Source: Candidatus Daviesbacteria bacterium
GTDB taxonomy: Bacteria; Patescibacteriota; Microgenomatia; Daviesbacterales; UBA10151
NCBI GenBank assembly: GCA_016198275.1
Contig: JACQIX010000019.1
Coordinates: forward strand, 1-61,531
DNA: 61,531 nucleotides
Direction: 5' to 3'
Below the pieces are notes generated by a model. That model had not been told where the DNA came from. It did no database searches and saw only the letters and a list, made by a program, of their open reading frames with translations. Shown piece after piece: positions 18,436-44,106 of this stretch. Position numbers and translations under genes: made by a program. Numbering within the stretch: position 1 is the stretch's first letter; each line of letters begins with the position of its first letter.

Positions 18436-21246
18436 ATGAACAACTTAAATTTTAAACAAATCGTAGAAGAAATAAAAGGTCGGGTCGATATAGTCGATGT
18501 GGTTAGTGAGTTCGTCGAGTTAAACCGAAACAATAAGGCACTATGCCCGTTTCATGATGAAAGACACCCGAGTTTTAGCGTTAACCCTAAGGGTCAATAT
18601 TATTATTGTTTTTCCTGCGGGGTTGGTGGAGATGTGATCGACTTTCTTAAGCGATTTAACACACAAAGTTTTTGGGAGGTGTTAAAGGAACTTGGTCGAA
18701 AAACTGGAGTTTCCATTGAATCGATATCGGATGAAGACAAAAAGCATATCGAAGACGTCTACACGATTGAAGAAATTCTTACTAAATCTGCTCATTATTA
18801 TCATTTGCGACTAACCAAAGAAGTCAAAAATTATCTAAATGAAAAACGGGCAATTAATGATGAGATGATTGAAAAGTTCCAAATTGGTTTTGCCGATGGG
18901 ACTCTGAGTAATTATTTATTAAATGAGTGCAAATACCCTCTGGATATATGTTTGAAATCAGGCGTTTTAAGGGGAGAACCCGCGAAAGACTATTTTTTTA
19001 ATCGTATCATGCTTCCAAATATCAGAAATGGCAGAGTAGTTTATTTGACAGGTAGGAGTTTAGACGACTCCGAACCGAAGTACATTCATATAGCTGGAGA
19101 ACAGCGATATTTATATAACGAGGAGGCATTAATAGAAGAAAATGTAATAGTTGTTGAGGGTTTCTTTGATTGTGTCTCGTTAGTACAGGCAGGGTTTAAC
19201 GCTGTAGCTTTGATGTCAACGAACCTAAAAGATGAATTCGTTCGTAAGTTTGATAAATGTAAAACAGTGTATATCTGTCTTGATGGCGATGAGGCTGGAA
19301 AGGTAGCTACCGAAAAACTTGGAGCAGCCCTAGTTCAAAAGACAAGAATCGTTCAGTTACCAGACAATTTAGACCCAGATGATTTCTTAAAGTCTTATTC
19401 TAGGGAAGATTTTGACGCACTGCTAAATTCCGCTCTTGATTTCATTCGTTACAAATTAAGCCAAATATCAACCGATACCGATAAAACCGAATTACCAAAG
19501 AAACTTGAGCCAATTCTTCTATTGCTTAACAGGTTAGATAGGGCTAACTCAGAGGCATTTTTATCTCACGTCATCAAAGATTATTTCAACCTGAAAAATA
19601 AAGACATTGATGCTTACAGGCAAACGATGAAAGAATTAGCCAAGAGAGAAAAAGAGAAAATTTCTACTTCGGGATTTGATCTTCCGGTTAAATATTCAGC
19701 CCATCTAAATGGTTTGGTTGATCTCGTTTTAGATAATGGCGAAACTGCATTTTTGATCAAAGAACTAGATAAATTGAAGATACGAGCTGAGATTGAGGAA
19801 GGATGGTGGTTGCTGTTGCCGCCTCCCAGAGAGCAGGTTCCTTGGTTATTGCCTAAGGGTGAAAACGTTATCAAGATATACGAACAAGAGGAATCTTTAG
19901 CACAAAAAACAGTCGATGGGCAACTTTATGATGATATTGTTAGCTATCTGAAGAACATATCAGAGTTACCCGGAGAGGCTTATTATGAATTACTTGCTGC
20001 TTGGGTTCTCCATACATATTGCATGGAAACACCCCAATATACGCCTATTATTTGTCTTTTTGCAGTTCCAGAAAGAGGGAAGAGCCGAACCGGAAAGGGA
20101 CTGATATATCTTGTATATCATGGCATCCATGTTGAAAGTTTGCGGGATCCATATCTGGTTCGAGTAGCAAATGATTTAGATGCTACTCTATTTTTTGACG
20201 TCAAAGATGTTTGGGAGAAGGCGGAAAAAGAGAAAAGTGAAGATATTTTGCTTCACAGGTTTGAAAAAGGTGCTAGAGTACCACGGGTTAATTATCCTGA
20301 GCGAGGACCGCATCAGGACATCGTTTACTATAAAATTTTTGGGCCTACGATTATCGCTACCAACGAGAGTGTCCACCAAATCCTTGAAACACGAGCGATT
20401 CAGATTAATATGCCCGAAACTAGTAAGCGGTTTGATAATTCCGTTACACCCGAACTAGCTATAGAGTTAAAAGAGCGTCTTATTGTTTTTCGAGCTCGTC
20501 ATTTTGAGGAACAATTTCCTGAAATTCCAAAACCTGCAAATGGAAGACTTGGAGATATACTACGACCCCTACTTCAAATCGTTCAGCTCGTTAAACCAGA
20601 ACGGGAAGAAGCATTTTTGCGGCTCATTAAGGAATTAGAAAAGGAGCGATTAATTGAGAAAGCGGATTCTCTAGAAGCCCAGATATTGCTTGTTATTATC
20701 GGACTGAAGGATCGAGTGGAGAGGGGTATGTTACCTGTCAAGGATATTACCGACAAATTAAATGAAAACAAGCCCGATGACCATAAATTTTCTTATCATC
20801 GAGTTGGAAGAAGACTTTCTGCTTTGGGTTTCCGTAAGGGAAAAACCGGAGATGGAAGCTCTGCGATTATATGGGACGACGATTTAACGGAACGAATGAA
20901 AGCAAAGTATGGTTTGAACGAATCATCAGAAATACCAGAAACACCAGAATCTTCGGATTTAAATACAGATAATACTGATGTTTCTGGTGATACTGGTGTT
21001 TCTCCAAAGATTAACAAGAATGGAATAAACCTAAATCACATGGGAGATAGTGAGTTAATGGACCAAGAAGACGCATTGAGGAATGCCCTAATATTTTTTG
21101 AAAAGAATACTCCCGAATATGAAGTCAAATATAAGGAATGGTTCTCTTATAGAGAAGAAGGTGTTCGACGTAAGCTTTTTGATACTTTTGTTCCAGCAAG
21201 CCAGCAAGAGCTGGGATTTAACGATGGAGGTGGTTCTAGTGCCTAA
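18436..21246 (+). CDS. DnaG-type primase (CHC2 zinc finger + Toprim) fused to a C-terminal P-loop NTPase-like domain
   Basis: 936 aa. It has a zinc finger (CPFHDERHPSFSVNPKGQYYYCFSCGVGGDVIDF), Toprim motifs (VVEGFFDCVS and CLDGDEAGKVA), a downstream Walker-A-like AVPERGKS, and a Walker-B-like LFFDVKD. Confidence 0.85.
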   Translation: MNNLNFKQIVEEIKGRVDIVDVVSEFVELNRNNKALCPFHDERHPSFSVNPKGQYYYCFSCGVGGDVIDFLKRFNTQSFWEVLKELGRKTGVSIESISDEDKKHIEDVYTIEEILTKSAHYYHLRLTKEVKNYLNEKRAINDEMIEKFQIGFADGTLSNYLLNECKYPLDICLKSGVLRGEPAKDYFFNRIMLPNIRNGRVVYLTGRSLDDSEPKYIHIAGEQRYLYNEEALIEENVIVVEGFFDCVSLVQAGFNAVALMSTNLKDEFVRKFDKCKTVYICLDGDEAGKVATEKLGAALVQKTRIVQLPDNLDPDDFLKSYSREDFDALLNSALDFIRYKLSQISTDTDKTELPKKLEPILLLLNRLDRANSEAFLSHVIKDYFNLKNKDIDAYRQTMKELAKREKEKISTSGFDLPVKYSAHLNGLVDLVLDNGETAFLIKELDKLKIRAEIEEGWWLLLPPPREQVPWLLPKGENVIKIYEQEESLAQKTVDGQLYDDIVSYLKNISELPGEAYYELLAAWVLHTYCMETPQYTPIICLFAVPERGKSRTGKGLIYLVYHGIHVESLRDPYLVRVANDLDATLFFDVKDVWEKAEKEKSEDILLHRFEKGARVPRVNYPERGPHQDIVYYKIFGPTIIATNESVHQILETRAIQINMPETSKRFDNSVTPELAIELKERLIVFRARHFEEQFPEIPKPANGRLGDILRPLLQIVQLVKPEREEAFLRLIKELEKERLIEKADSLEAQILLVIIGLKDRVERGMLPVKDITDKLNENKPDDHKFSYHRVGRRLSALGFRKGKTGDGSSAIIWDDDLTERMKAKYGLNESSEIPETPESSDLNTDNTDVSGDTGVSPKINKNGINLNHMGDSELMDQEDALRNALIFFEKNTPEYEVKYKEWFSYREEGVRRKLFDTFVPASQQELGFNDGGGSSA

Positions 21247-21472
21247 TTTTAGAGAAAAAGTACAAGACAAAGTTGCCTTGATCTTAATAGATTTTTTGCA
21301 TGATGTTAAAGCTGTTAATTGGACAGCAAGAAATGAAATAGATATTGATGAAAATAATTACGGAGAGCTGGCGAAAATGTACGCAAAGCAAATAGAGAGA
21401 TTTATCGTAAGGTCATTGACAAGCAAGAGTATTGATAAATCTACAAAGGAATCCGAAAAATATGAACGCTGA
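21224..21472 (+). CDS. Hypothetical small protein
   Basis: 82 aa from the ATG at 21224. The track ORF starts at 21098 but would overlap the primase by 149 nt. No motif. Confidence 0.3.
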   Translation: MEVVLVPNFREKVQDKVALILIDFLHDVKAVNWTARNEIDIDENNYGELAKMYAKQIERFIVRSLTSKSIDKSTKESEKYER

Positions 21473-21554
21473 CAGTAAGGTAAGATACGTCAGATATACC
21501 AGAAAGGCCTGTCGTTCAAGAATTTCTAATGAAAGAGCGAGGTGAATTACGAGC

Positions 21555-22040
21555 GTGAATAACCAACAAAATCAACAAAACCAACAGAATGTTAATTCTT
21601 ACGAAGCTTTAGATAAGCTAGGCAAAGAAATTGTAGTCTTAAAACTATCGGGGCTTTCATATCAAAGTATAGTGGAATATCTAGAAAAGATAGGAGAGAA
21701 GCGAGAGAACCAGACAGTTAGAGAATGGTTTATTAATGGTGGTAAGTATTATGAAGCTTATGAGTTTATGAAGGCTAAAAGGCATGAAGAAATCGAACCA
21801 GAATTTAAGGCAATCGAGGGGCAAATCAAAGAAGGAGCAATAGATGCAATCGGGGTTGTCAGGGATCAAGTTAAAAGGGGCAATCTGAAAGCAGCAATGT
21901 ATCTTCTTAAATTGGCTGGTTTTGAAGTGGAGCAAATCAAAAATATCAGTGACGAGTCTGAAGAAATGAAGCTTTTGAAGGAAATCATAGAAAGAAATGA
22001 ACAGCGATCTAGCACAACTCACCAAATTATTCAAAATTAA
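21555..22040 (+). CDS. Candidate terminase small subunit / HTH DNA-binding protein
   Basis: 161 aa with a GTG start. It has an N/Q-rich N-terminus and then an HTH-like segment (LKLSGLSYQSIVEYLEKIG). Its position immediately upstream of TerL, overlapping it, is the main argument. Confidence 0.4.
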   Translation: MNNQQNQQNQQNVNSYEALDKLGKEIVVLKLSGLSYQSIVEYLEKIGEKRENQTVREWFINGGKYYEAYEFMKAKRHEEIEPEFKAIEGQIKEGAIDAIGVVRDQVKRGNLKAAMYLLKLAGFEVEQIKNISDESEEMKLLKEIIERNEQRSSTTHQIIQN

Positions 22041-23352
22041 TGGTCAAGGTTTGGTTTTAACCCCAACCCAACAGAAAATTTTTGACCTGATAGTTACTAA
22101 CGCTCATCCAAGAAATCAAATTATTGCTCCTACCCAATATGGAAAGTCACTCACCGTAGCTTTATCTGTGTTATGTAGAAGTGTGGGTAAGGGTGAGAAG
22201 TTTATTATTTTAGCTCCTTCTGAGAAAAAAGCAGGGATTACCATGAATTACATTATTGACCACTGTTTTGATTCCAATCTTTTTCTCTCCCAACTAGAAC
22301 TTGAGCAATCATTTACTCTGGATAGACTTAGAAGAGAACGTTCCAGGAATCATCTAACCTTTAAAAATGGCGGTGGGATAATGACATTAACACTAGATGC
22401 CAGAAATTCTAAGAGATCTCTTGAAGCAGCAATGGGTTTTGGAGGTAATAGGTTAATTTTAGACGAAAGCAGTCTAATTGATGATCCCTTGTATGCAACA
22501 GTTAAAAGGATGTTAGGTGGTCATCCTTACAGCAATACCTTTCTTCTTGAGATTGGCAATCCTTTTTACAGAAATCATTTTTACCGAACTTGGAACACTG
22601 AACGATATAACAAATTATTTATTGACTATAAAGTTGGACTTGCGGAAGGTAGATATTCTGAGGAATTTATCGAAGAGATGAGAGATGAGGCATTTTTCAG
22701 TGTTTTTTATGAGTGTAAATTTCCAGAGGAAGATATAGTAGATGAATATGGTTATCGAGTCCTTCTTACCAATGAGGAATTAAATAATGCTTTTGTAAAC
22801 GAGCATCTACCTATGGAGAGAGAGCTATATTTAGGAGCTGATATAGCAGGAGGCGGTGATTACAATGTCTTTGTAATGCGGACAAAACAGTTTGCTTGGA
22901 TTGAAAGTAAAAATAGGTCTAATGACACAATGACAAATGTTTCTGAAATTCAAAGGATTTTAGAACAATATCCTAATCTTAAACCCCAAAATGTTTTTGT
23001 AGATGATATAGGGGTGGGAAGAGGGGTATCTGACAGATTAAGAGAATTAAATCTAGCAGTAAATGGGGTATCAGCTGGAGAAAAAGCTCTAAATGCTGCT
23101 AAACATAAGAATATTAAAGCTGAATGTTATTGGTTGGCTTCTCAATGGATTAAACAGGGAGGAAAACTTTTAAGAGATGATAATTTCAGACAACTCACTT
23201 GGATAAAGTACAAAGTTAATAGTGAGAGGGTTTTACAAATTGAGCCTAAAGAAGGGTTGAAACAAAGAACTGGTAGATCACCTGATTTTGCTGATGCTTT
23301 TATGCTGACTTTTGTTACCCCAAAACTAGAGCCTAAAATTTGGTGGATATGA
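21997..23352 (+). CDS. terL: Terminase large subunit
   Basis: 451 aa. It has Walker A APTQYGKS and Walker B LILDESSLI. The C-terminal RNaseH-like nuclease carries acidic motifs GADIAGGGDYNVFV, VDDIGVGRGVSD and SPDFADAFML. Confidence 0.85.
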   Translation: MNSDLAQLTKLFKINGQGLVLTPTQQKIFDLIVTNAHPRNQIIAPTQYGKSLTVALSVLCRSVGKGEKFIILAPSEKKAGITMNYIIDHCFDSNLFLSQLELEQSFTLDRLRRERSRNHLTFKNGGGIMTLTLDARNSKRSLEAAMGFGGNRLILDESSLIDDPLYATVKRMLGGHPYSNTFLLEIGNPFYRNHFYRTWNTERYNKLFIDYKVGLAEGRYSEEFIEEMRDEAFFSVFYECKFPEEDIVDEYGYRVLLTNEELNNAFVNEHLPMERELYLGADIAGGGDYNVFVMRTKQFAWIESKNRSNDTMTNVSEIQRILEQYPNLKPQNVFVDDIGVGRGVSDRLRELNLAVNGVSAGEKALNAAKHKNIKAECYWLASQWIKQGGKLLRDDNFRQLTWIKYKVNSERVLQIEPKEGLKQRTGRSPDFADAFMLTFVTPKLEPKIWWI

Positions 23353-23404: not shown

Positions 23405-23442
23405 TTGAATTTGTTTTGATGATATTCTACACTATGTAGTAG
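23405..23442 (+). promoter_or_regulatory. Promoter plus palindromic operator upstream of the BlaI-like repressor gene
   Basis: -35 TTGAAT (23405-23410), a 17-nt spacer and -10 TACACT (23428-23433). The 16-mer CTACACTATGTAGTAG (23427-23442) contains the dyad CTACA-cta-TGTAG. It matches the 16-mer at 24901-24916 at 14 of 16 positions. Confidence 0.5.
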
Positions 23443-23444
23443 AT

Positions 23445-24877: not shown

Positions 24878-24916
24878 TTGACAGAGAAGTGATCACCCTA
24901 CTACACTTAGTAGTAG
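24878..24916 (+). promoter_or_regulatory. Promoter plus palindromic operator of the thiol/CxxC operon
   Basis: -35 TTGACA (24878-24883), an 18-nt spacer and -10 TACACT (24902-24907). The 7-5-7 palindrome CTACTAC-ACTTA-GTAGTAG (24898-24916) overlaps the -10. The leader carries GGAGGTGA before the ATG at 24951. Confidence 0.5.
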
Positions 24917-24950: not shown

Positions 24951-25229
24951 ATGCCAGACAATACTTCTCTAAAATCAAGTGCGATACATCAGGTAGAAGA
25001 TGCACCAACTAATAATACCATGACGCTTCGTGTGCCCAAACCCAACATGCAGGTGGCGGTTTTGGGACTGGTAGCGTTTATTACTCTCTTTCAGACTGTT
25101 CAATTGGTGAGAATCGGTGCTAAAGCGGGATCAGCACCAGTCAAGGCCGCGCCAGCCGCTGCAACTACCAATACCGGCGGTTCCGGGAGCAATGCGGACG
25201 TTCCCCAATCAATGGTTGGCGGTTGTTAA
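24951..25229 (+). CDS. Small single-TM protein with an Ala/Pro/Thr/Gly-rich linker ending in ...MVGGC
   Basis: 92 aa with a strong SD (AAAGGAGGTGA, 5 nt before the ATG). The TM helix is VAVLGLVAFITLFQTVQLV, and the C-terminal residue is Cys. Confidence 0.5.
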   Translation: MPDNTSLKSSAIHQVEDAPTNNTMTLRVPKPNMQVAVLGLVAFITLFQTVQLVRIGAKAGSAPVKAAPAAATTNTGGSGSNADVPQSMVGGC

Positions 25230-25253
25230 ATAGTATTCGATTTAAAGCAAATT

Positions 25254-26471
25254 ATGCGTACTAAGACAAAACTCGTCTCTGACGAGAAGACTATTAATAT
25301 ATCAAAGACTAATGGCCAGGTAAAAGCAAAATCTCTCAATGTTCCTTGGCCAAAAGTTTTTCTGGTTGTGGCAGTGATTTCAACTGTTATCGGCGCCTTC
25401 GTTGCCACAAAAACGCTCGCACAAACAGAAAAGAAAATTGCTGAGGTAAAAGAGATGGCTCGACCTGCGAATGTGACTTTGACCAAGATTGCAGTTGAGA
25501 ACTGTGCAGACTGTTTCAATGTTGATGACGCGATAGCGACGTTTAAAAAGCAAAATGTTTCTGTCAGCGAAGAAAAAACTTTTCTTTCCACCTCAGCTGA
25601 AGCAAAGACTCTGATTACCGATTTGGGGATTAAACGGCTTCCTACTTATGTTGTTAAAGGAGAGATAACTAAGCAAAGTCTCGAAGGATTTGTTAAAGGA
25701 AACGGCGAGGTTAAAAATGACACCTTTATTTTTACAGGCGTTTCCCCTTTATTTGTAGATCCTCTGAGTAATAAAGAGATGGGTAAAGTTAGTGTGACAT
25801 ACCTCACCGATCCATCGTGTTCTTCTTGCATTAATCCAAAACTTACCATTGATGCGTATAAAAAAGCTGGGGTTAAAGTAACTGAGGAAAAAGAAGTATC
25901 TTGGAATTCTTTAGAGGGGCAAAAAATTATTAATCAGTATAAGATTGAAAAATTGCCAACTTTTGTACTCTCATCTGACGTTTCTTACTATTCGAGTATT
26001 AAGGATAACTGGCAAAAGATAGGGACTGTCGAACCAGACGGAGCATACGTGGCCAGACAGTTATTTCTTCCCTATCGTGATGTGACTAAGGGCCAGATTG
26101 TCGGACTGGTCGATGTTGTTTATCTTACCGATTCTAGTTGTACTGATTGCTACAAACCTCAGGAGGTTCATAAAAATATACTTACCCAAGGGTTTGGGGT
26201 AGGAATTCGGTCTGAACAAAGTGTCGATGCGAATTCACCGTATGGCAAGAGTCTTGTCTCAAAATACAAGATTACTCAAGTGCCAACCTTATTAATTTCA
26301 CCTGAAGTAGCGGAGTACTCAGGCATCAAACAAGTATGGCCTCAAGTAGGAACCACGGAACCAGATGGATGGTATGTGTTTCGCCAGGTCTCGCGTTTGG
26401 GCAGTGTTATTTATAAAGATTTTACAAGTAATCAAGTAGTTCGGCCGCAGCAACAACAAGCTGCACCGTAA
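25254..26471 (+). CDS. Membrane-anchored protein with three tandem thioredoxin/DsbA-like CxxC domains
   Basis: 405 aa with an N-terminal TM anchor. It has three ~110-aa repeats, each with a CxxC motif (CADC, CSSC, CTDC) and a downstream [KR]LPT / VPT cis-Pro-type motif (IKRLPTYV, IEKLPTFV, ITQVPTLL). Confidence 0.6.
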   Translation: MRTKTKLVSDEKTINISKTNGQVKAKSLNVPWPKVFLVVAVISTVIGAFVATKTLAQTEKKIAEVKEMARPANVTLTKIAVENCADCFNVDDAIATFKKQNVSVSEEKTFLSTSAEAKTLITDLGIKRLPTYVVKGEITKQSLEGFVKGNGEVKNDTFIFTGVSPLFVDPLSNKEMGKVSVTYLTDPSCSSCINPKLTIDAYKKAGVKVTEEKEVSWNSLEGQKIINQYKIEKLPTFVLSSDVSYYSSIKDNWQKIGTVEPDGAYVARQLFLPYRDVTKGQIVGLVDVVYLTDSSCTDCYKPQEVHKNILTQGFGVGIRSEQSVDANSPYGKSLVSKYKITQVPTLLISPEVAEYSGIKQVWPQVGTTEPDGWYVFRQVSRLGSVIYKDFTSNQVVRPQQQQAAP

Positions 26472-26483
26472 CAGTAATAAAAT

Positions 26484-27746
26484 ATGTTTAAAAAAACTAT
26501 CAGCGGAATAAAGACTGTCTTTGGCGACAGTTCATCATGGAAAGTTGCCGTAGTTGCAGGCGCAATTCTCTCTTATCTCTATTACTGGCTTCTTTCCCAA
26601 GTTACAACTATACCTCAATTTTTCTCCATGGCTCAAAATGGCGAATTTGGCCAGCATAGCATTCTTTATGCATTTCTTTATTGGACAACAACCTTAACTA
26701 CAATCGTTTTTTTTGGAATATCAGTGGCAGTCCTCGCATGGCTCTGGCGCCATTCAAAGCTACAACGGCTCGCCGTAGGTGGGTCAAATGCACTGGGTGT
26801 ATTTGCCGGAGCACTCGGATCATCCTGTCCGGTATGTGGAGCGTTCCTCCTAAATGCAATTGGAGTTACGGGCGGAGTCGCTACGATGCCCTTTCAAGGA
26901 TTGGAACTCAAGTTTGCTAGCTTGGGGCTCATGGTAGGGTCTACATTCTTTGCTTCCCGAAAAGTAAACGAGGCAGAAGAATGTGTGGAATGCGAGGATA
27001 TTTCTGAACACAAAGTTTCCGATAGTAAGTCATATAAGAAAGTTATTGTTCTTCCGCTCGAGAAAGTTTTTGTCTCAATCCTTATTGGCTTGTTTATTGT
27101 TAATCAAATTCTAATAAGCCAAGTGGCGGCGATCACTGGCTTGCCATCTGGAGGAATCGGGAGATTACTCGGTATTAGAACGGCATCAGCTATGACCATT
27201 ATTGCTCCCAAACTCAATCCAGATGGGAGAACCACTACTCTTGTTGAACAACCAACCATTACCGAGGTTTCTGCTAATCCTAACACCGGGGACGCCCTGG
27301 CTGATGCTAAGGTGGTCATGATTGCCACTGGTAAACCCTTTTATGCCCCCGATGACGTCTCTTTTGATGATCCGATTAACGCGCAAAAAAAATGGGGCGC
27401 ATTTGAGCAGTCAATTAAACTTTCGGGAGCCGAGGAAACACGGTATCAAAAACTCATAAGTACCATGGTTTGCAGTTACTGCTGTGGTGGTCCAACAAGT
27501 GTTACGCTCAATAAAAATTGCGGGTGCGCCCATGCTAAAGCAGTGCGGGGTTTTTACAAGTATATGATCCAAAATTACGGCGATCAGTATTCCGATGATC
27601 AACTTATCGGTGAATCTCACCGTTGGTATGCCATCTGGTATCCCAAGGGGATGCTGGAAGACTATTTATTAGCCACAGGTAAATCTGACGCACTTCCTCA
27701 TCAGACTCACGGAGGGGCGGGGGCTGATGGAAGGCATGGATTATGA
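26484..27746 (+). CDS. Cys-rich membrane protein: 4-TM module with an intramembrane CPVC plus a soluble domain carrying a CSYCCGG...CGCAH cluster (PCYCGC-like)
   Basis: 420 aa. GALGSSCPVCGAFLL lies in a TM segment, and the C-terminal domain has MVCSYCCGGPTSVTLNKNCGCAHA. Resemblance to the PCYCGC-motif family is from memory only. Confidence 0.5.
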   Translation: MFKKTISGIKTVFGDSSSWKVAVVAGAILSYLYYWLLSQVTTIPQFFSMAQNGEFGQHSILYAFLYWTTTLTTIVFFGISVAVLAWLWRHSKLQRLAVGGSNALGVFAGALGSSCPVCGAFLLNAIGVTGGVATMPFQGLELKFASLGLMVGSTFFASRKVNEAEECVECEDISEHKVSDSKSYKKVIVLPLEKVFVSILIGLFIVNQILISQVAAITGLPSGGIGRLLGIRTASAMTIIAPKLNPDGRTTTLVEQPTITEVSANPNTGDALADAKVVMIATGKPFYAPDDVSFDDPINAQKKWGAFEQSIKLSGAEETRYQKLISTMVCSYCCGGPTSVTLNKNCGCAHAKAVRGFYKYMIQNYGDQYSDDQLIGESHRWYAIWYPKGMLEDYLLATGKSDALPHQTHGGAGADGRHGL

Positions 27747-28180
27747 GCTTATTATCAGGTACGAAAACACGGATAGGCAGCCTTGTAAGTTCTTTGACGT
27801 CCGTACTTGGGATTGGCAGTAGCAGCACTTCAGTCGTGTGTCAAACAACCTGCTCAACATCTTCGAGTGTTTTGCCGTTTTTGGGTTTATCCTTAGCCGC
27901 TACGCCATTTGCCTTCATCCAAGACTATCAGCTATATATTTGGTGGTTGGCATTTTCTCTTTTTGTTTTGACTCTATGGGTTTCTTCAAAGAGAAATTTT
28001 TCTTCAAAATTTGAACAAGGACTTCTTTTTGTAAATGCAGGGCTTTTGGCAATAGGGTTGCCTTATCTGCGTAATTCGCAAGCGTTTGTTCTTATTGTCG
28101 GGTTGGGAATTGTTCTTTTAGTATTAGGGATATTTCAAGCGATTAGAGCTAAAAAGTTTGTTCTTGAATTTACGAAGTAA
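27743..28180 (+). CDS. Small polytopic membrane protein with a CxxxC pair
   Basis: 145 aa. The start overlaps the previous stop (ATGA). VVCQTTCSTSSSVLPFLGLS is followed by QDYQLYIWW, a pattern shared with 26484 and 43223. Confidence 0.45.
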   Translation: MSLLSGTKTRIGSLVSSLTSVLGIGSSSTSVVCQTTCSTSSSVLPFLGLSLAATPFAFIQDYQLYIWWLAFSLFVLTLWVSSKRNFSSKFEQGLLFVNAGLLAIGLPYLRNSQAFVLIVGLGIVLLVLGIFQAIRAKKFVLEFTK

Positions 28181-28181
28181 T

Positions 28182-28895
28182 ATGAAACAGAGTAAACGAT
28201 CAGAGTTAAAGATTTCAGCATGGGATTTTACAATTCCCGGCTTTGTTGTGCATCCGGCGTTCCACTTGCCTAAATATTCACTTGCCACATATCTGTTTAT
28301 TATTATCATCGCAGGATTTCTTATTAACCAAACTCTCCTCATGAAAGTTAATTCAAATGCCGTAAATCAGAAAAGTCAGGTGGAACTTACAGCTTCTCCC
28401 CCCCCATCGCTTTCAGCATTTGATCAAAATATCATAGCTAAATTGAAAAATGAAGGTAAACCTTATCCAATATTAGGTACAGCTCATAACCATGCCGATA
28501 TGAAAGTCTTTATGAATGGACAACCGTTTAATTTTGCAAAGCCAGAGTATTACATGAAGAGCAGGCTTCTTCATGTAGATAATAATCAAAACCTCGAGGA
28601 TGCAGGCTCGGTCCTGCACATGCATGCCAAAGATGTACCGATGTGGTTGTTCTTTGAAAGTCTGGGTATGAAGCTAGGGAAAGACAGTTTGACACTCGCC
28701 GATGGCCAGATTTTAAGGAACGAGAATGGTAATACCTTGAAGTTTTTCCTCAACGGGAAAAAGGTTGGCGAGTTGGAAAACTATGTTTTTCAGCCACTGG
28801 ATAAATTACTTATCAGTTTTGGTCCGGAGAATGATCCGGATATTCAAAAGCAAACAGATTCTGTACCAAATTTTGCAAAGGGTCACCAGAAGTAA
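28182..28895 (+). CDS. Membrane-anchored hypothetical protein with His-rich patches
   Basis: 237 aa from the ATG at 28182. The track TTG start at 28158 overlaps the upstream gene. It has a TM anchor, then GTAHNHADMKVF... and VLHMHAKD. Confidence 0.45.
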   Translation: MKQSKRSELKISAWDFTIPGFVVHPAFHLPKYSLATYLFIIIIAGFLINQTLLMKVNSNAVNQKSQVELTASPPPSLSAFDQNIIAKLKNEGKPYPILGTAHNHADMKVFMNGQPFNFAKPEYYMKSRLLHVDNNQNLEDAGSVLHMHAKDVPMWLFFESLGMKLGKDSLTLADGQILRNENGNTLKFFLNGKKVGELENYVFQPLDKLLISFGPENDPDIQKQTDSVPNFAKGHQK

Positions 28896-28896
28896 T

Positions 28897-29457
28897 ATGA
28901 GCAAACATAATGTTGTTATTGATGTTTCGACTGAACGGAAAGTCTTTATCGGCATTGGACTACTAACATTACTGATTTTAGTAGGAGGGGTATGGTTGAT
29001 GAGCGCTTCAGGTAAAAAACAACAAGAAAAGTTAAGTAAGCCGCTCATGGGAGAAGAAATTACCAGTCAAGGAGAGCCTCATGTTAAAAGAGGAGAATCG
29101 CATCCTTCATATAACTCCAATCCTCCGACCTCCGGTTGGCATTGGGGCGATGGCACTGCCGGACCAGGGATTAAAGACCAGCCGGTTCCCGATGAACTGG
29201 TACTCCATAGTATGGAGCATGGTGCAGCAGTCATCTGGTATAAATCTGACATGTCAAAGGAAGATGTAGAAAAGATTACCAAAGCATTTAATGATGCTTC
29301 CGGTAAGAAAATCATGGTACCGCGTCAGAATTTGGATACACCGATTGCGTTAACATCTTGGGGGCGTTTACTTAAGCTTCAATCAATTGATGAGGGAAAA
29401 ATTAAGGAGTTTATTTCAACCAATGAAGATCGGGGGCCTGAAAAGGCCGCAATATGA
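28897..29457 (+). CDS. Membrane-anchored DUF3105-like protein
   Basis: 186 aa from the ATG at 28897, 1 nt after the previous stop. NSNPPTSGWHW...LVLHSMEHGAAVIWY...LTSWGRLL fits the DUF3105 pattern as I recall it. Confidence 0.5.
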   Translation: MSKHNVVIDVSTERKVFIGIGLLTLLILVGGVWLMSASGKKQQEKLSKPLMGEEITSQGEPHVKRGESHPSYNSNPPTSGWHWGDGTAGPGIKDQPVPDELVLHSMEHGAAVIWYKSDMSKEDVEKITKAFNDASGKKIMVPRQNLDTPIALTSWGRLLKLQSIDEGKIKEFISTNEDRGPEKAAI

Positions 29458-29460
29458 TTT

Positions 29461-30138
29461 ATGAATCAAATATTAATGTCTTTTGCTTTTCTAGCTGGAC
29501 TGCAGGCATTTTTTGCGCCATGTAGCATTGCTTTAATTCCGGCGTACGTCGGATACTATGTCCGTGAACGTGCTGATAGTCACAGTAAGCTGCAAGAGTT
29601 ATTTTTTGGACTAAAAGCAGGAATTTTTTCAAGTCTGGGTCTTTTAAGCGTATATTCCGTTTTCGGAATACTCTTTGCACTTTTAGGGAAAGTTTTAGCT
29701 CCTTTCATGTCCTGGATTGAGCTTACAACCGGTGGTATTCTCTTGTTCTTGGGTGCATCGACGCTTTTGGGGTATGAGTTTGCTATCCGGCCTCCTGTTG
29801 TTATTCAGGTCAAGTCGGATGGAGTGAGAAGGTTTTATTTTTTTGGTCTAGCATATGCTTTGGGGGCGATAGGCTGTACCCTTCCTATTTTTCTGCTGGT
29901 TATATTTCAAGCACTTGCTCAAACAGGGTTTATGGGAGGTATAGCCACTTTTTTGATTTATAGCCTTGCCATGGTTCTTCTGATGCTTGCTTTTTCCCTT
30001 GTGGCTGCTGTTTCCAAAACAGCCATCTCTCGTTTTATGAATCGCTATATTAATGCTATCCAAAAGAGTGCGGGAATGCTGATTCTCTTCGCTGGAATAT
30101 ATTTAGTTTATCTAAGTTTAAAAATAATAACCATATGA
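29461..30138 (+). CDS. CcdA/DsbD-family transmembrane thiol:disulfide electron transporter
   Basis: 225 aa with 6 TM helices. The conserved Cys lies in FFAPCSIALIPAYVGY, with a second Cys in GAIGCTLPIF. Confidence 0.8.
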   Translation: MNQILMSFAFLAGLQAFFAPCSIALIPAYVGYYVRERADSHSKLQELFFGLKAGIFSSLGLLSVYSVFGILFALLGKVLAPFMSWIELTTGGILLFLGASTLLGYEFAIRPPVVIQVKSDGVRRFYFFGLAYALGAIGCTLPIFLLVIFQALAQTGFMGGIATFLIYSLAMVLLMLAFSLVAAVSKTAISRFMNRYINAIQKSAGMLILFAGIYLVYLSLKIITI

Positions 30139-30764
30139 AGCGACCTGTGATTGTTTGGCACGATCAGCCACTATTTAAAAAAACACCTTTTGCACTCGTT
30201 GTTGTAGTTGTTTTATTTGTCGGTTTTAATGTCTACCTTAATCTAAAGATTAAAAATACAAATGAAGAACTGAAGCAAATTGAGTCTGCAGCTTCCGCTC
30301 CGAGGAGCGTACCAGCAGAGTTTACCAAACGGATTGAACTTGGAGAAAAAGGCTGTCCTATGGCGAAAGCGGGTAATCCTAACGCTCCTGTAAAGTTTAA
30401 ACTCTTCGAATCTCCAACGTGTCCCTTTTGTATTGCTCAGGATAAGGTTATCTCTGAAATATTACCTCAGTATGGAGATCTGTTTTATGGAGAGTGGTAT
30501 CAGGTTACAGACTGCGTTAAAGAATCAGAGCAATATGGTATATCTGGTGTACCAACGTTTGTCTTTAGTGCCAAGGGTTCTGAAAAGGCACCAGCATACG
30601 GATTTTTAGATAAACAACAACTCATCGATTATATATGCCGAGTTTCAGGTGAATGCACGTCACCTAAAGAATCTCAGACAAAAACTTTATCACCTGTCCT
30701 TGCAACCTCCCAATTTGTATGTAAACCAAGAGAGACTTATACGTATGAACTAACTAAAAAGTGA
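30135..30764 (+). CDS. Membrane-anchored thioredoxin-fold (DsbA/TlpA-like) oxidoreductase
   Basis: 209 aa. It has a TM anchor, CxxC in ESPTCPFCIAQD, and a GVPTFVF cis-Pro loop. The start overlaps the CcdA stop (ATGA). Confidence 0.7.
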   Translation: MKRPVIVWHDQPLFKKTPFALVVVVVLFVGFNVYLNLKIKNTNEELKQIESAASAPRSVPAEFTKRIELGEKGCPMAKAGNPNAPVKFKLFESPTCPFCIAQDKVISEILPQYGDLFYGEWYQVTDCVKESEQYGISGVPTFVFSAKGSEKAPAYGFLDKQQLIDYICRVSGECTSPKESQTKTLSPVLATSQFVCKPRETYTYELTKK

Positions 30765-35680: not shown

Positions 35681-36565
35681 ATGGACTTACTTGTCAGTGC
35701 GTCGTTAATCGCTGCATTCTTAGCCGGAATAGCAGCTTTATTTGCGCCTTGCTGTATTACGGTTTTACTCCCAACATATTTTGCCTCAATCTTTAAAGAA
35801 AAGAGCAAGGTATTTTTCATGACTTTTATATACTTTTTAGGACTACTTGCGGTTTTTATTCCCATCGGTTTGGGATTTACTGCTCTCACTCAACTCTTTC
35901 GGGAATTTCATAATGTCATATTTATCGGCGGAGGGATTTTTCTCTTAATATTAGGTTTTGCTTTGACTATTGGGTACAAATTTTCCCTGCCCATGCTTGT
36001 TCACCCGGAACTGAAAGAGCATGATATTCTCTCAGTCTTTGGATTGGGAATTTTTTCAGCAATTGCTACTACTTGCTGCGCTCCGGTGCTTGCAGGTGTC
36101 CTGGCGTTATCCAGCCTTTCAGGGTCCTATTTTCTGGGAGCTATTTACACACTTACTTATGTATTGGGCATGGTGACACCTCTATTTATACTGGCAGCCT
36201 TTTTGGATAAGGCAAATTTCACGAAAAAGTTTATGGGTTTCAGAAGGCCGGTAACTTTTGCAATATTAAACTTCAAGATTACCAATACAATCGCCAATCT
36301 CTTTTCCGGACTCATGTTTTTAGCCATTGGAGTAGTTATCACTTATTTAGGTCTGACTAATCAGTTGTCCATGCAAAATTCGTATCAGCTGAATACCAAT
36401 CTCATAATTTTCGATATAACAAAGCGAATCGGTCAGTACAGTGCAGTTTTACCTGAGTCGGTTTGGGCAATCATTTTCTTAAGCATCTTTGGACTGATTG
36501 TGGCAGTTGCAGTCAAACAATTCATTACTCAAAGTCGAAAGCAGGAAGGAGGTGGATCTTTATGA
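35681..36565 (+). CDS. CcdA/DsbD-like transmembrane thiol:disulfide transporter (second copy, longer)
   Basis: 294 aa. It has LFAPCCITVLLPTYF and a second Cys pair in ATTCCAPVLAGV. Confidence 0.7.
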   Translation: MDLLVSASLIAAFLAGIAALFAPCCITVLLPTYFASIFKEKSKVFFMTFIYFLGLLAVFIPIGLGFTALTQLFREFHNVIFIGGGIFLLILGFALTIGYKFSLPMLVHPELKEHDILSVFGLGIFSAIATTCCAPVLAGVLALSSLSGSYFLGAIYTLTYVLGMVTPLFILAAFLDKANFTKKFMGFRRPVTFAILNFKITNTIANLFSGLMFLAIGVVITYLGLTNQLSMQNSYQLNTNLIIFDITKRIGQYSAVLPESVWAIIFLSIFGLIVAVAVKQFITQSRKQEGGGSL

Positions 36566-37212
36566 ACTCATCACAGAAACACATAGCTATTATTGCGACA
36601 GAAGTAATTATCGCCATGGTTATTCTCGTCTCGATTTTTGTGAAGGCTACAAGCCAATCACCTGCAACCCAATCATCTCAAGCGAATACATCAGGTGATT
36701 CAATGGCAGATCACCACAAACCAAAGCCCGCAGATTCAGCAGTTTTTGACGGACTCATGGGCAAATCAGCTCCGGATTTTACCTTACCCAGCTATGATGG
36801 CAAACAAGTAAGTCTAAAGGATTTTCGGGGCAAAAACGTAATTCTCTTTTTCAATGAAGGCTTGATGTGCTATCCAGCTTGTTGGAATCAAATTGTCGCC
36901 TTTGGGAAAGATACTGCCTTTAAGGATAAAAATACAGTTGTAATTAATATTACAGTGGATTCCAAAGATGACTGGAAAAAAGCAATTGATAAAATGCCGG
37001 AACTGGCGGGAAACACGGTTCTTTTAGATCCAAACAGAGAAGTTTCAGGTCTGTATGGGGTTTTGGCGCTCAATTCTTCTATGCATCGGGGACAATTTCC
37101 GGGGCATACCTATGTTCTGATTGGCAAAGATGGCATTGTCCGATTTGAAAAAGATGATGCTCAAATGGCAGTCCGAAACCAAGAGTTATTATCTGAAGTA
37201 GCCAAGCTCTAA
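36562..37212 (+). CDS. Membrane-anchored thioredoxin-fold redoxin (AhpC/TSA / TlpA-ResA-like)
   Basis: 216 aa from the ATG at 36562, with an ATGA overlap and GGAGGTG 7 nt upstream. It has GKSAPDFTLPSYDGKQVSLKDFRGKNVILFF and a CYPAC redox motif. Confidence 0.7.
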   Translation: MNSSQKHIAIIATEVIIAMVILVSIFVKATSQSPATQSSQANTSGDSMADHHKPKPADSAVFDGLMGKSAPDFTLPSYDGKQVSLKDFRGKNVILFFNEGLMCYPACWNQIVAFGKDTAFKDKNTVVINITVDSKDDWKKAIDKMPELAGNTVLLDPNREVSGLYGVLALNSSMHRGQFPGHTYVLIGKDGIVRFEKDDAQMAVRNQELLSEVAKL

Positions 37213-37999: not shown

Positions 38000-38033
38000 A
38001 CTCACAATTTCCTAATCCTAAGATTGTTACACT
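37995..38033 (+). promoter_or_regulatory. Promoter E with 11-bp boxes (ICMT-like operon)
   Basis: TTTTTACTCAC and AATTTCCTAAT (37995-38016), an 11-nt gap, -10 TACACT (38028-38033), then 8 nt to the ATG at 38042. Confidence 0.45.
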
Positions 38034-38041
38034 ACAAGCAT

Positions 38042-38761
38042 ATGGAATACGATTACGGAAATTGGCTACTCGTTTTATTTAATATTGTTCTGTTTTTGTA
38101 CTTTATCAAAAGTGCGTTTAAGCCACGGACAAAGACAGACTGGACAACTTTCCGCTATTTTGGCGCCTTCATTGTGGCACTATTCGCCGAGATGTATGGA
38201 TTTCCTCTGACTATTTATCTTTTAACTTCATTCTTTGGTAACAAACTAGGATTGGATTTTACTCACAACAATGGCCACATTCTCAATACCTTGTTTGGTT
38301 TAAAAGGTGATCCACATTTTAATATCCTGCACATCGCTAGCTACGCGCTGATTATTGGCGGACTTGTCCTTCTGGGTAGGGCTTGGGAAGTGCTCTATAA
38401 AGCGGTTAAACAAAACAAACTTGCAACAGACAGTGTTTACAAATACATCCGCCATCCTCAATATCTGGCGTTTATACTTATTATTTTAGGATTCCTTGTT
38501 CAATGGCCGACTCTAATTACTCTTATCATGGCCCCAATTCTTATCTTCCGGTATATTAAGCTTGCAAGAACAGAGGAAAAAGAGATGCTTAAAAAATTTG
38601 GGTCTGCATACCAAGTGTATAAAAATGAGGTCCCGGGTTTCTTTCCGTCTATAAAACATCTTTTAGGCGATGTTATTCAAAAAATTACAATCTCAAAAGA
38701 TCTTAAGGCAGGAGAACATTATGAAAAACAGAGTCACATTGTACCGCACAGTCAAAACTGA
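38042..38761 (+). CDS. Isoprenylcysteine carboxyl methyltransferase (ICMT/PEMT)-family membrane protein
   Basis: 239 aa from the ATG at 38042. The track TTG start at 38024 lies inside the predicted promoter. The family signature YKYIRHPQYLAFILIILGFLV is present. Confidence 0.6.
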   Translation: MEYDYGNWLLVLFNIVLFLYFIKSAFKPRTKTDWTTFRYFGAFIVALFAEMYGFPLTIYLLTSFFGNKLGLDFTHNNGHILNTLFGLKGDPHFNILHIASYALIIGGLVLLGRAWEVLYKAVKQNKLATDSVYKYIRHPQYLAFILIILGFLVQWPTLITLIMAPILIFRYIKLARTEEKEMLKKFGSAYQVYKNEVPGFFPSIKHLLGDVIQKITISKDLKAGEHYEKQSHIVPHSQN

Positions 38762-43226: not shown

Positions 43227-43648
43227 ACAGTGCAATAGCAAAAGGAACTCTGGCTTCACTGGTACTCCTTATAGTGTATTTCACCGTTGTCTCTTTGGTT
43301 TCCGGTTGGAGTTTTGCTCAGGATCAGTTTCGTCAATTCTGGTACTTCGTTGTTACTTTGGCAATAGGATTTGGTGTTCAGATAGGGCTGTATAGTTATC
43401 TTAAAAGTTCAATCAAAGGCGCGGTTAGTCCGAGAATTGTAACCACTACCGGAGCCACTTCCACTGCAGCGATGATTTCCTGCTGCGCCCATTACCTTGT
43501 GAACTTATTGCCCATCCTAGGCGCTGTTGGAATCATCACCGTTATCTCTCAGTACCAAGTGCAATTATTTTGGGTAGGTCTAGCGTTTAACTTTGCAGGA
43601 ATCGCTTATATGGCAAATAAAGTCTATAAATTCTCAAAACATATATGA
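43223..43648 (+). CDS. Small 4-TM membrane protein with an intramembrane Cys pair (SCCAHY)
   Basis: 141 aa with an ATGA overlap with the ATPase gene. MISCCAHYLVNLLPILG...SQYQVQLFWV is the same pattern as in 26484 and 27743. Confidence 0.45.
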   Translation: MNSAIAKGTLASLVLLIVYFTVVSLVSGWSFAQDQFRQFWYFVVTLAIGFGVQIGLYSYLKSSIKGAVSPRIVTTTGATSTAAMISCCAHYLVNLLPILGAVGIITVISQYQVQLFWVGLAFNFAGIAYMANKVYKFSKHI

Positions 43649-44106
43649 AAAACCAAAAGGTCATCATAATTGGTCTGGCAATTGTTATTATCGGAGCCGC
43701 TTTTTATTATGTGATCTTCAACCGTACAAACTCGTCAAGCACACAACCAGTTGGACCTGAACAATCAGAACAAAGTACTCTTTCAACCCAAACACTAACG
43801 GATGGAACTGTAACTTATAAAGTAACACCCAAAAATTTGACTTCTAGTGTCTCTACTTGGGATTTTGATATCAGCCTGGATACACATACCGGAAGCTTAG
43901 ATCAGGATCTAGTAGAAATCGTTCATCTGGTTGACGACAAAGGCAATGAATATAAAGCCACAACATGGGAGGGTGCCCCAGCTGGAGGTCATCATCGCGA
44001 AGGTATTCTTAGGTTCTCTCCAGTTACTCCACGCCCTGATTTCTTTGAATTGAAAATACAAACTACAAGTAGCACAGAAAATAATAGTTTGCGCTGGAAT
44101 ATATGA
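43645..44106 (+). CDS. Membrane-anchored extracytoplasmic protein of unknown function
   Basis: 153 aa with an ATGA overlap. A TM anchor is followed by a beta-rich-looking domain with a GGHHREG patch. Confidence 0.4.
   Translation: MKNQKVIIIGLAIVIIGAAFYYVIFNRTNSSSTQPVGPEQSEQSTLSTQTLTDGTVTYKVTPKNLTSSVSTWDFDISLDTHTGSLDQDLVEIVHLVDDKGNEYKATTWEGAPAGGHHREGILRFSPVTPRPDFFELKIQTTSSTENNSLRWNI

Follow-up and report, generated by a model that had tools for sequence, protein, structure and literature searches.

The contig JACQIX010000019.1 of a Candidatus Daviesbacteria bacterium (assembly GCA_016198275.1), of which 61,531 nucleotides constitute the window analysed here, raises the question of which task is served by a tightly packed row of genes for cysteine-rich envelope proteins that stands behind a BlaI-type repressor and a BlaR1-like membrane protease. 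With a probability of roughly 0.55, we read this row (24951-30764, plus strand) as a copper-linked envelope defence operon of Patescibacteria, which in this genome travels on a mobile element, next to copper genes, and whose products would form a cysteine relay. Gene content, invariance of motifs, synteny, operator conservation, copper neighbourhood and the absence of known homologues, on which this reading builds, were established directly. The core of the operon is built around two protein families with absolutely invariant cysteine constellations and without recognised fold or annotation, together with a tethered terminal-cysteine arm, all of which are, as far as found, absent from Pfam, NCBIfam, the PDB and the searchable literature; a literature search on DUF3105, BlaR1/BlaI, copper in Patescibacteria or the candidate phyla radiation (CPR) and C-terminal-cysteine themes returned no description of such a core system.

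The block holds eight genes (Table 1), which are separated in order by 24, 12, -4, 1, 1, 3 and -4 nucleotides, and a scan for plus-strand terminators gave no convincing one within it. All genes that a first-pass annotation had listed behind the BlaI-type operator, a cysteine-ending peptide, a triple thioredoxin, CPVC and CxxxC membrane proteins, a His-patch protein, a DUF3105 protein, CcdA and a CxxC thioredoxin, are indeed there; its count of ten genes holds if blaI and the M56 protease gene directly 5' of the block are included, as the block itself contains eight. The M56 gene starts 6 nucleotides 3' of blaI and is followed by a 105-nucleotide spacer up to p92, in which TTGACA-18-TACACT is the best sigma-70-like promoter match of the region (10 of 12 positions). 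Overlapping its -10 box is operator 2, CTACTACACTTAGTAGTAG, a perfect 19-bp palindrome of 7-5-7 architecture, to which operator 1 is related, the last base of the latter being located one base before the start codon of blaI. Among 23 distinct loci, at least 19 keep the palindrome CTACTACAnnnnGTAGTAG between the genes for M56 and p92, a recurrence which provides phylogenetic support for control by BlaI. Gene, motif and operator evidence together support the annotated extracytoplasmic Cys-protein operon behind a switch of the BlaI/BlaR1 type. All operon proteins were scanned against the Pfam and NCBIfam profiles, and the outward orientation of the cysteine motifs was assigned by hydropathy and positive-inside reasoning only.

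Table 1. Features of the window with their support and, where counted, their occurrence among the 34 loci with p420 (aa, amino acids; ORF, open reading frame)
Feature	Position	Strand	Characteristics and support	Loci (of 34)
DnaG-type primase fusion (936 aa) and terminase-large-subunit-like gene	18436..23352		directly 5' of blaI	
Operator 1, BlaI-type, TCTACACTATGTAGTAGA	23426..23443	+	just 5' of blaI; sequence read and palindrome scan	
BlaI/MecI/CopY-family repressor, 121 aa	23445..23810	+	PF03965 107 bits, E 8e-31	
M56/M48 BlaR1-like membrane protease, 342 aa	23817..24845	+	PF05569 44.8 bits, PF01435 51.1 bits; HEQMH	
Operon promoter and operator 2	24878..24916	+	promoter 24878-24907, operator 24898-24916	
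p92, membrane-tethered peptide, 92 aa	24951..25229	+	alignment of 33 homologues	32
Trx3, three thioredoxin-like domains	25254..26471	+	N-terminal anchor; Cx(D/E/x)C and cis-Pro motif per domain	33
p420, 420 aa	26484..27746	+	alignment of 29 relatives, 56-84% identity	
p145, small membrane protein	27743..28180	+	C33-x3-C37 (CQTTC), then LPxLG and YQ motifs	9
His-patch protein	28182..28895	+	ORF 28158-28895; N-terminal anchor, HxHAD...HxD...LHxHA, no Cys; alignment of 11 homologues	10
DUF3105 protein	28897..29457	+	ORF 28765-29457, likely start 28897; PF11303 E 2.5e-27, 95.9 bits against a 25-bit cut-off	14
CcdA1, CcdA-like protein with six transmembrane segments	29461..30138	+	Cys in segments 1 (APCS) and 4 (GCTLP)	13-14
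Trx209, anchored CPFC thioredoxin, MJ0307-type	30135..30764	+	Thioredoxin_4 28.2 bits, above cut-off	13-14
CcdA2, second CcdA/DsbD_TM protein	35681..36565	+	PF02683 (DsbD_TM) 39.7 bits, above cut-off	16, within 10 kb
Anchored redoxin, Sco/TlpA-like, CYPAC (CxxxC)	36562..37212	+	AhpC-TSA E 1.9e-21, Redoxin E 5.7e-16, weak SCO1-SenC	12, within 10 kb
ICMT-family protein	38024..38761			8
Met-rich anchored protein, 116 aa	39371..39721		no Pfam family	
p141, transmembrane protein	43223..43648		CC, LLPILG and QYQ motifs	16-17 (with p153), within 10 kb
p153, anchored protein	43645..44106		GGHH motif, weak DUF5643	16-17 (with p141), within 10 kb

In a scan of one genome per species, 34 species-representative loci of Patescibacteria were found with p420 and searched with all proteins of the window. 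The genes for p92, Trx3 and p420 are adjacent in 30 of these loci and BlaI-M56 are encoded directly upstream in 22, with many of the others ending at contig edges, and the full eight-gene order is repeated in two loci (L017 and L037). The cassette of Uhrbacteria consists of BlaI, M56, p92, Trx3 and p420 only, placed amid genes for gyrase, NusB and RNase III, which defines these five as the conserved unit, the other five genes of the operon being variable accessories encountered in 9-14 of the 34 loci. Loci of Parcubacteria have the order BlaI, M56, a separate C-terminal domain of p420, p92 and two Trx, later followed by the N-terminal module of p420, homologues of the His-patch protein and of p153/p141, and then by a cupredoxin or CsoR gene. 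The set is thus syntenic in other genomes and linked to copper, so that the objection foreseen at the outset, namely that it might recur nowhere else, falls away.

The small protein p92, for which no Pfam or NCBIfam family was found, combines one transmembrane helix with a low-complexity linker of variable length, and its sole cysteine is the very last residue (...PQSMVGGC). Its family is characterised by the motif LRVPKPNxQ and by the C-terminus (V/A)PxSMVGGC-COOH, with the MVGGC end present in 33 of 33 homologues. The adjacent Trx3 possesses the CxxC pairs C84/C87, C189/C192 and C296/C299, each followed by a cis-Pro-type (R/K)(L/V)PT, and the three CxxC and PT motifs are kept in an alignment of 34 homologues. 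Matches to Pfam thioredoxin families are sub-threshold (E 1.5e-4 to 2.7e-3) and the similarity to the MJ0307 thioredoxin 1fo5 is weak, with no DSBA family match in Pfam and nothing significant in a PDB sequence search; Trx3 is consequently termed thioredoxin-like by motif and weak profile only.

The third core protein, p420, is composed of two modules. The N-module has four transmembrane segments, with C115 and C118 of a CPVC motif (115-118) in the middle of the third and with C167 and C170 (CVEC, 167-170) in the loop after the fourth. Five hydrophobic segments altogether predict a topology in which the N-terminus is inside, the C167/C170 loop cytoplasmic and a C-terminal domain of 200 residues outside. 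This outer domain, which begins after the fifth segment, bears the cluster CSYCCGG...CGCAH (330-350) with invariant C330, C333, C334, C346, C348 and H350, a Cys5His signature of the form CxxCC-x11-13-CxCxH, and ends in a His-rich stretch with invariant H406, H409 and H418. When 395 sequences were aligned to the p420 profile, 335 of them including the C-domain, the six sites read CCCCCH in 333 of the 335, and CPxC was kept in 184 of 185. The public gene call (P0001, 372 aa) seems to start 48 codons late; homologues conserve those N-terminal residues, which include the first transmembrane helix.

No Pfam or NCBIfam family was assigned to p420, including its 29 relatives, ten distant module-only relatives and eight divergent forms, and a PDB sequence search with p420 gave nothing significant. 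The model of full-length p420 is mediocre (predicted local distance difference test, pLDDT, 66), and its best Foldseek match in the PDB has an E value of 1.3 and a TM-score of at most 0.21. A naturally tailed C-domain protein, on the other hand, is modelled by AlphaFold as an all-alpha fold with a mean pLDDT of 87.5 (above 92 in the domain), its last 14 residues reaching about 80 versus below 50 for another linker. As the best match of this high-confidence model among 350,542 PDB chains has an E value of 0.94, the Erv/ALR, Mia40, CcmH and Csp-type copper-storage folds, which had been considered for the C-domain, are unsupported. For a CcmH-like domain, PF03918 is moreover without match in the genome, and the same model (pLDDT 87.5) has no PDB match with E below 0.9.

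Close relatives of p420 number in the hundreds, all of them annotated as hypothetical and without Pfam domains, in Daviesbacteria, Uhrbacteria, WWE3 and other Patescibacteria; an exhaustive HMMER search yielded 1,303 clusters at 50% identity, and p420 modules occur in 36 of 401 sampled genomes of Patescibacteria. N-module (about 190 aa) and anchored C-domain (about 250 aa) are mostly encoded by separate genes or by divergent fusions of 500-620 aa, with a P1B ATPase, multicopper oxidase, Trx3, BlaI/M56, DUF3105, His-patch protein or p141/p153 as neighbours. The (M/Q)VGGC end, which is the same as the terminus of p92, is found in 59 of 83 stand-alone C-domain representatives, a Met neighbours the tail cysteine in about three quarters of the tails, and one tailed member is annotated as originating from an Aenigmarchaeota (DPANN) archaeon. 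In two loci (L039 and L041, from genomes G101 and G058), proteins of 500-620 aa combine the CPxC N-module with a different outer domain (YRPCCGNS...DCNHG) and end in Gly-rich cysteine tails, GGGGCGV and GGRGCGI; one protein of this type has an N-terminal cytoplasmic zinc-ribbon. A strict Rosetta-stone reading, in which the arm is either fused or separate, was abandoned, as in Parcubacteria a tailed C-domain and a p92-like peptide with a tail of its own are encoded in the same loci. That one module occurs in three copies, as the p420 N-module, p145 and p141, holds in part only: p145 and p141 are related, but the N-module has no detectable relation to either. Contigs of IMG/VR contained no relatives of p420 and 72,556 PLSDB plasmids none of the C-domain.

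Which signal does the switch in front of these genes read? The BlaI product is without the C-terminal CxCx4CxC of CopY, terminating in ...KRRELLKILDE, and scores 68.7 bits with TIGR02698 (CopY_TcrY), under the cut-off of 122 bits, so that a CopY-type metal site was not found. No penicillin-binding sensor domain is present in the M56 protein, which NF000326 matches in the protease part only (29 bits versus a 400-bit cut-off); BlaR1 has a length of about 585 aa, and with 342 aa and no such domain the M56 protein is PetP-like rather than BlaR1 proper. Repressor, adjacent HExxH protease and palindromic operator, as expected of a BlaI/BlaR1 switch of the PetR/PetP type, are all in place. The predicted outer C-terminal tail of the protease carries a conserved C-x5-C-x3-C-H (cysteines C299, C305 and C309), with the tail cysteines kept in an alignment of 23 homologues, and Cys-rich tails are found as well in M56 homologues of Parcubacteria and Uhrbacteria.

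In Synechocystis sp. PCC 6803, the repressor PetR, of BlaI/CopY type, is degraded only with copper, and by PetP, a protease of the M48/M56 kind that has no sensor domain; PetRP, with petE/petJ as its regulon, induces a cupredoxin in response to copper, and PetP is thought to sense via two Met in a loop (bioRxiv 10.1101/2020.07.31.226407; PMC7896320). Both PetR/PetP and the pair in the window thus combine a BlaI/CopY-family repressor lacking the CopY metal cysteines with an adjacent M48/M56 HExxH protease lacking a penicillin-binding sensor. Whereas PetP has the two loop Met, the candidate sensor of the window protease is its conserved outer Cys3His tail, and whereas PetR/PetP controls petE/petJ, the window pair precedes envelope Cys-protein genes with a putative copper dependence. 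With this copper-responsive pair already known, the notion that BlaI/BlaR-type control of such genes is undescribed had to be given up.

The genes around the operon point to copper. Downstream, a multicopper oxidase, a 40-aa HMBD peptide, a CusRS-like two-component system, DUF2933 and ICMT-family proteins are encoded, further on followed by a Met-rich protein, a P1B ATPase with HMBD and the p141/p153 pair. A P1B ATPase lies within 10 kb in 14 of the 34 loci, and YHS, cupredoxin and CsoR genes are present in others. The primase and terminase-like genes upstream of blaI indicate that in this genome a mobile element carries the block; the cassettes of Uhrbacteria and WWE3 are chromosomal, among housekeeping genes.

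How could these components act together? BlaI would occupy the palindromes over the -10 box and repress the operon until copper or thiol stress at the cell surface is read by the Cys3His tail that the M56 protease is predicted to expose; the protease would then cleave BlaI, in the manner of PetP and PetR, and the promoter would be freed. The p92 protein may serve as a flexible tether, with the free cysteine of its MVGGC C-terminus partnering the outer Cys5His domain of p420, and Trx3 would present its three CxxC domains on the same membrane face as arm and domain, beneath which the p420 N-module would align the intramembrane CPxC and the cytoplasmic cysteine pair. Such a relay could capture surface Cu(I) and keep surface cysteines reduced and metal-free, could resolve copper-induced disulfides, or could do both. 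Electrons would come from the cytoplasm by way of CcdA1 and the CPFC thioredoxin, which, perhaps joined by the N-module of p420, would link the relay to the cell interior, with the His-patch and DUF3105 proteins as putative accessory metal binders. The inducer, the orientation of the proteins, the contact between arm and domain and the nature of the cargo, metal or electrons, are those parts of the scheme that we infer. A VKOR homologue (G000 contig C29, 12855-13223; 82.6 bits) without DsbB in the genome assembly suggests that housekeeping disulfide formation is probably VKOR-based, so that surface disulfides are made which copper could scramble. CPR bacteria are generally held to lack quinone biosynthesis.

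Metal as the cargo is favoured by the metallothionein-like arrangement of CxxCC, CxC and His and by the Met beside the arm cysteine, as judged from sequence, as well as by the three invariant His of the p420 tail, the position of N-modules near P1B ATPases or a multicopper oxidase and the copper neighbourhood. Cys-to-His/Asp or Cys-to-Ser swaps at the six C-domain sites were sought to separate metal from redox; because these sites never vary, transfer of metal and of electrons is not separable computationally. From the proposed label of a copper-damage repair system, the link to copper stands; repair is one candidate role, and copper capture or transfer and cuproprotein maturation fit equally. 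Going further, it is conceivable, though we put it forward as a tentative proposal that may well prove wrong, that LPx(M/Q)VGGC-COOH is a swinging-arm cysteine serving the Cys5His domain and the CPxC conduit, which together with multi-thioredoxins would make up an envelope relay of carrier cysteines, of a class not seen before, that handles Cu(I) or reducing equivalents, is specific to ultra-small CPR bacteria and DPANN archaea and replaces periplasmic chaperones or small-molecule thiols absent from such cells.

Several points weigh against a copper-linked relay. The five domain cysteines and the arm cysteine could simply form three structural disulfides, and the BlaI switch may sense something other than copper, for example disulfide or oxidant stress. 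No copper gene lies near the cassette of Uhrbacteria, a multicopper oxidase lies within 10 kb in only two of the 34 loci, and full-length p420 is rare, in about 3 of the 401 sampled Patescibacteria genomes. The topology is heuristic, with an ambiguous charge bias of the window p92, and the sequencing runs holding the sequence are DNA runs of groundwater metagenomes, with no RNA run among them.

The same proteins can be arranged into a pure reducing or isomerase pathway, with p420 as an analogue of DsbD/CcdA that passes electrons from the cytoplasmic cysteine pair via CPxC, the outer CxxC/CxC and the arm cysteine to Trx3 and on to substrates, whose surface disulfides would be repaired or isomerised under oxidative or disulfide stress, and with copper as one of several triggers or a co-selected neighbour. 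Cysteine groups inside, within and outside the membrane, CxxC and CxC motifs of classical redox type, an obligate partner consisting of several CxxC thioredoxin domains with cis-Pro, a housekeeping VKOR oxidising pathway in the genome and the lack of a CcdA near the minimal Uhrbacteria cassette that could reduce Trx3 all favour electron transfer. We nevertheless consider this rather unlikely as the whole function, since the regular CcdA and thioredoxin pair in the window operon would make p420 redundant, the arm has a single cysteine, the stand-alone N-module beside P1B ATPases or multicopper oxidase has three conserved cysteines only, and the invariant His tail which in p420 replaces the arm fits metal ligation better than disulfide exchange. 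A serious third option beside metal capture and electron transfer, which we still judge unlikely, is cuproprotein maturation, in which BlaI/M56 would induce the arm, the Cys5His domain, Trx3 and the Sco-like redoxin as Cu(I) chaperones for multicopper oxidase and cupredoxins exported by Sec to the outside of a cell without periplasm, analogous to Sco/TlpA/PCuAC and to the control of plastocyanin by PetRP. The induction of a cupredoxin by PetRP on copper, the cupredoxin genes at the end of BlaI/M56-headed Parcubacteria clusters, the divergent p420-like gene that directly abuts a multicopper oxidase gene in L041, the N-module that precedes one in L017, the multicopper oxidase 3' of the window operon and the Sco-like CxxxC of the redoxin would agree with it, but most of the 34 loci are without cuproprotein gene within 10 kb, and the window cluster, with efflux ATPase, Met-rich protein, CusRS-like system and mobile element, is of the resistance type.

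Uptake of a soft metal (Hg, Ag, Cd or Cu) for detoxification or efflux, from outer thiols via CPxC to the cytoplasmic cysteine pair, would follow the layout of MerP/MerT, which comprises an outer CxxC carrier, a transmembrane and a cytoplasmic cysteine pair and to which that of p420 runs parallel. The best family match among the 29 p420 relatives is indeed MerT, found weakly in one of them (E 0.014); PF02411 remains unmatched by the window p420 and the other 28, neither merA nor merR turned up in the scanned proteins of the window, and import of copper is counter-intuitive in a resistance island, which makes such uptake highly improbable. Hardly any credence is given to cytochrome c maturation of the CcdA/ResA type or to a locus for a bacteriocin or a peptide that is made by ribosomes and modified after translation (RiPP) with p92 as the precursor. 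CcdA plus thioredoxin constitute the reducing arm of System II and are both encoded in the operon, but PF01578 (CcsA/CcmC/CcmF) and PF03918 (CcmH) are unmatched in the assembly (788 kb, 84% complete), and no ResB-like match is found beyond a chance-level one to CcsB (E 0.059); with no haem-handling genes, cytochrome c maturation is out, in line with the initial annotation, for which haem-handling partners would have been the sign of such a function. The small size of p92, its Gly-Gly-Cys end and a faint PedC-like match in Trx3 homologues recall RiPPs or bacteriocins; the loci, though, have no modifying enzyme or peptidase-ABC exporter, and a conserved transmembrane helix followed by a variable low-complexity linker is typical of a tether and not of leader plus core.

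Among the accessory genes of the operon, CcdA1 has Cys21 and Cys139 in transmembrane segments with Pro nearby and a DsbD_2 score of 21.4 bits (E 2.5e-4) versus a cut-off of 24.9, and where present it is always paired with Trx209. For the latter, CxxC, cis-Pro and family hidden Markov model agree on a thioredoxin fold (TIGR00411 E 5e-11; PDB 1fo5 E 1.5e-7), the DSBA match being weak (13.7 bits). Neither p145 nor the His-patch protein belongs to a Pfam or NCBIfam family, and p145 is related to p141 (hhalign probability 83%, E 9e-6). The alignment of homologues and the stop of p145 at 28180 make 28182 the likely start of the His-patch protein. In two loci (L011 and L020), its homologues contain MDKNNDGICDxCGMxxQQCIDxGQxDCNMG inserted before HxHAD, a Cys-rich segment that suggests an added metal site. 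The DUF3105 protein has an N-terminal anchor and conserved NPPTSG.H and HSMEHG motifs, and neither it nor the His-patch protein had a significant match in PDB sequence searches. HSMEHG, the most conserved motif of DUF3105, has an HxxEH arrangement, and M16 peptidases possess an inverted, HxxEH-like zinc-binding motif; judged by its motif, DUF3105 might act as a small metalloenzyme and not just bind metal passively.

The second CcdA and redoxin pair further downstream, noted in the first-pass annotation, is confirmed by Pfam matches; CcdA2 has vicinal CC pairs in its first and fourth transmembrane segments, not single cysteines, and the likely start of the redoxin overlaps its stop by 4 nucleotides. 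The Met-rich protein of the island is extremely so (MMQMGKMMMQSGSMMQQ...MMQMMGQ), as is typical for binders of Cu(I)/Ag(I), for example PcoE/SilE-like proteins and Met-rich inserts of multicopper oxidases. The p141/p153 pair is kept in Parcubacteria clusters as well. The ICMT-family gene stands beside genes for proteins with a free C-terminal cysteine, and eukaryotic ICMT methylates the carboxylates of C-terminal cysteines, a coincidence that is intriguing, but the predicted place of the arm is extracellular.

Much of microbial diversity belongs to CPR bacteria and DPANN archaea, cells that have to do without periplasm, quinones or glutathione-type buffers, and for the protection or metallation of their surface proteins the operon, conserved and regulated as it is, is a candidate. 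Should the arm with its terminal cysteine be a carrier, it would constitute a new design beside the few known transmembrane thiol and metal relays of DsbD/CcdA, DsbB/VKOR and MerT, and BlaR-type proteases would, if the proposed sensing is true, gain a defined non-antibiotic sensing element. With five genes in Uhrbacteria, the set is compact and testable.

How much of the operon is already familiar? Its periphery, BlaI/M56, CcdA plus thioredoxin, DUF3105 and multicopper oxidase, follows a recurrent, if unstudied, logic of metal islands. DUF3105 is common on plasmids of actinobacteria, Deinococcus and haloarchaea, and on Rhodococcus qingshengii pLP337 (NZ_CP092103.1) it is surrounded by two TlpA, CcdA, ResB, DUF305, CopC/CopD and DsbA/VKOR, with a BlaI/MecI/CopY regulator plus M56 peptidase, a multicopper oxidase and a P-type ATPase on the same plasmid. 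Rhodococcus plasmids thus share the accessory mix with the window operon, but are without p92, Trx3 and p420, whereas their ResB and DUF305 are absent from the window set. The claim that the combination is not a recognised system applies to the p92-Trx3-p420 core and not to the outer gene mix.

The comparison with CcdA-ResA, DsbD and Scs drawn at the outset is apt for the CcdA and thioredoxin pair. In Salmonella, Proteus and Caulobacter, ScsC is reported to bind Cu(I) and to isomerise disulfides, and ScsABCD is, like the window operon, a copper-linked envelope system, in which a DsbD-type transporter feeds Cu(I)-binding, disulfide-repairing proteins of the thioredoxin fold (PMC10907172, PMC8900818, PMC5524982). 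The window transporter, though, is a short CcdA and not ScsB, Trx3 is a triple minimal thioredoxin and ScsC DsbA/DsbG-like, and arm, Cys5His domain and CPxC N-module have no Scs counterpart, in a host that is a monoderm-type CPR cell; the operon does not belong to Scs, and the analogy is functional only. DsbD/CcdA, MerT/MerP and p420 are alike in having conserved cysteines inside, within and outside the membrane and a soluble or tethered CxxC carrier as partner. Between p420 and the other two there is no detectable homology, however; transmembrane fold and cysteine spacing differ, and its outer acceptor, a helical Cys5His domain with a single-cysteine arm, is unlike theirs. As a whole, the operon is a variation on the known theme of copper and thiol defence of the envelope, in which the core families are newly found.

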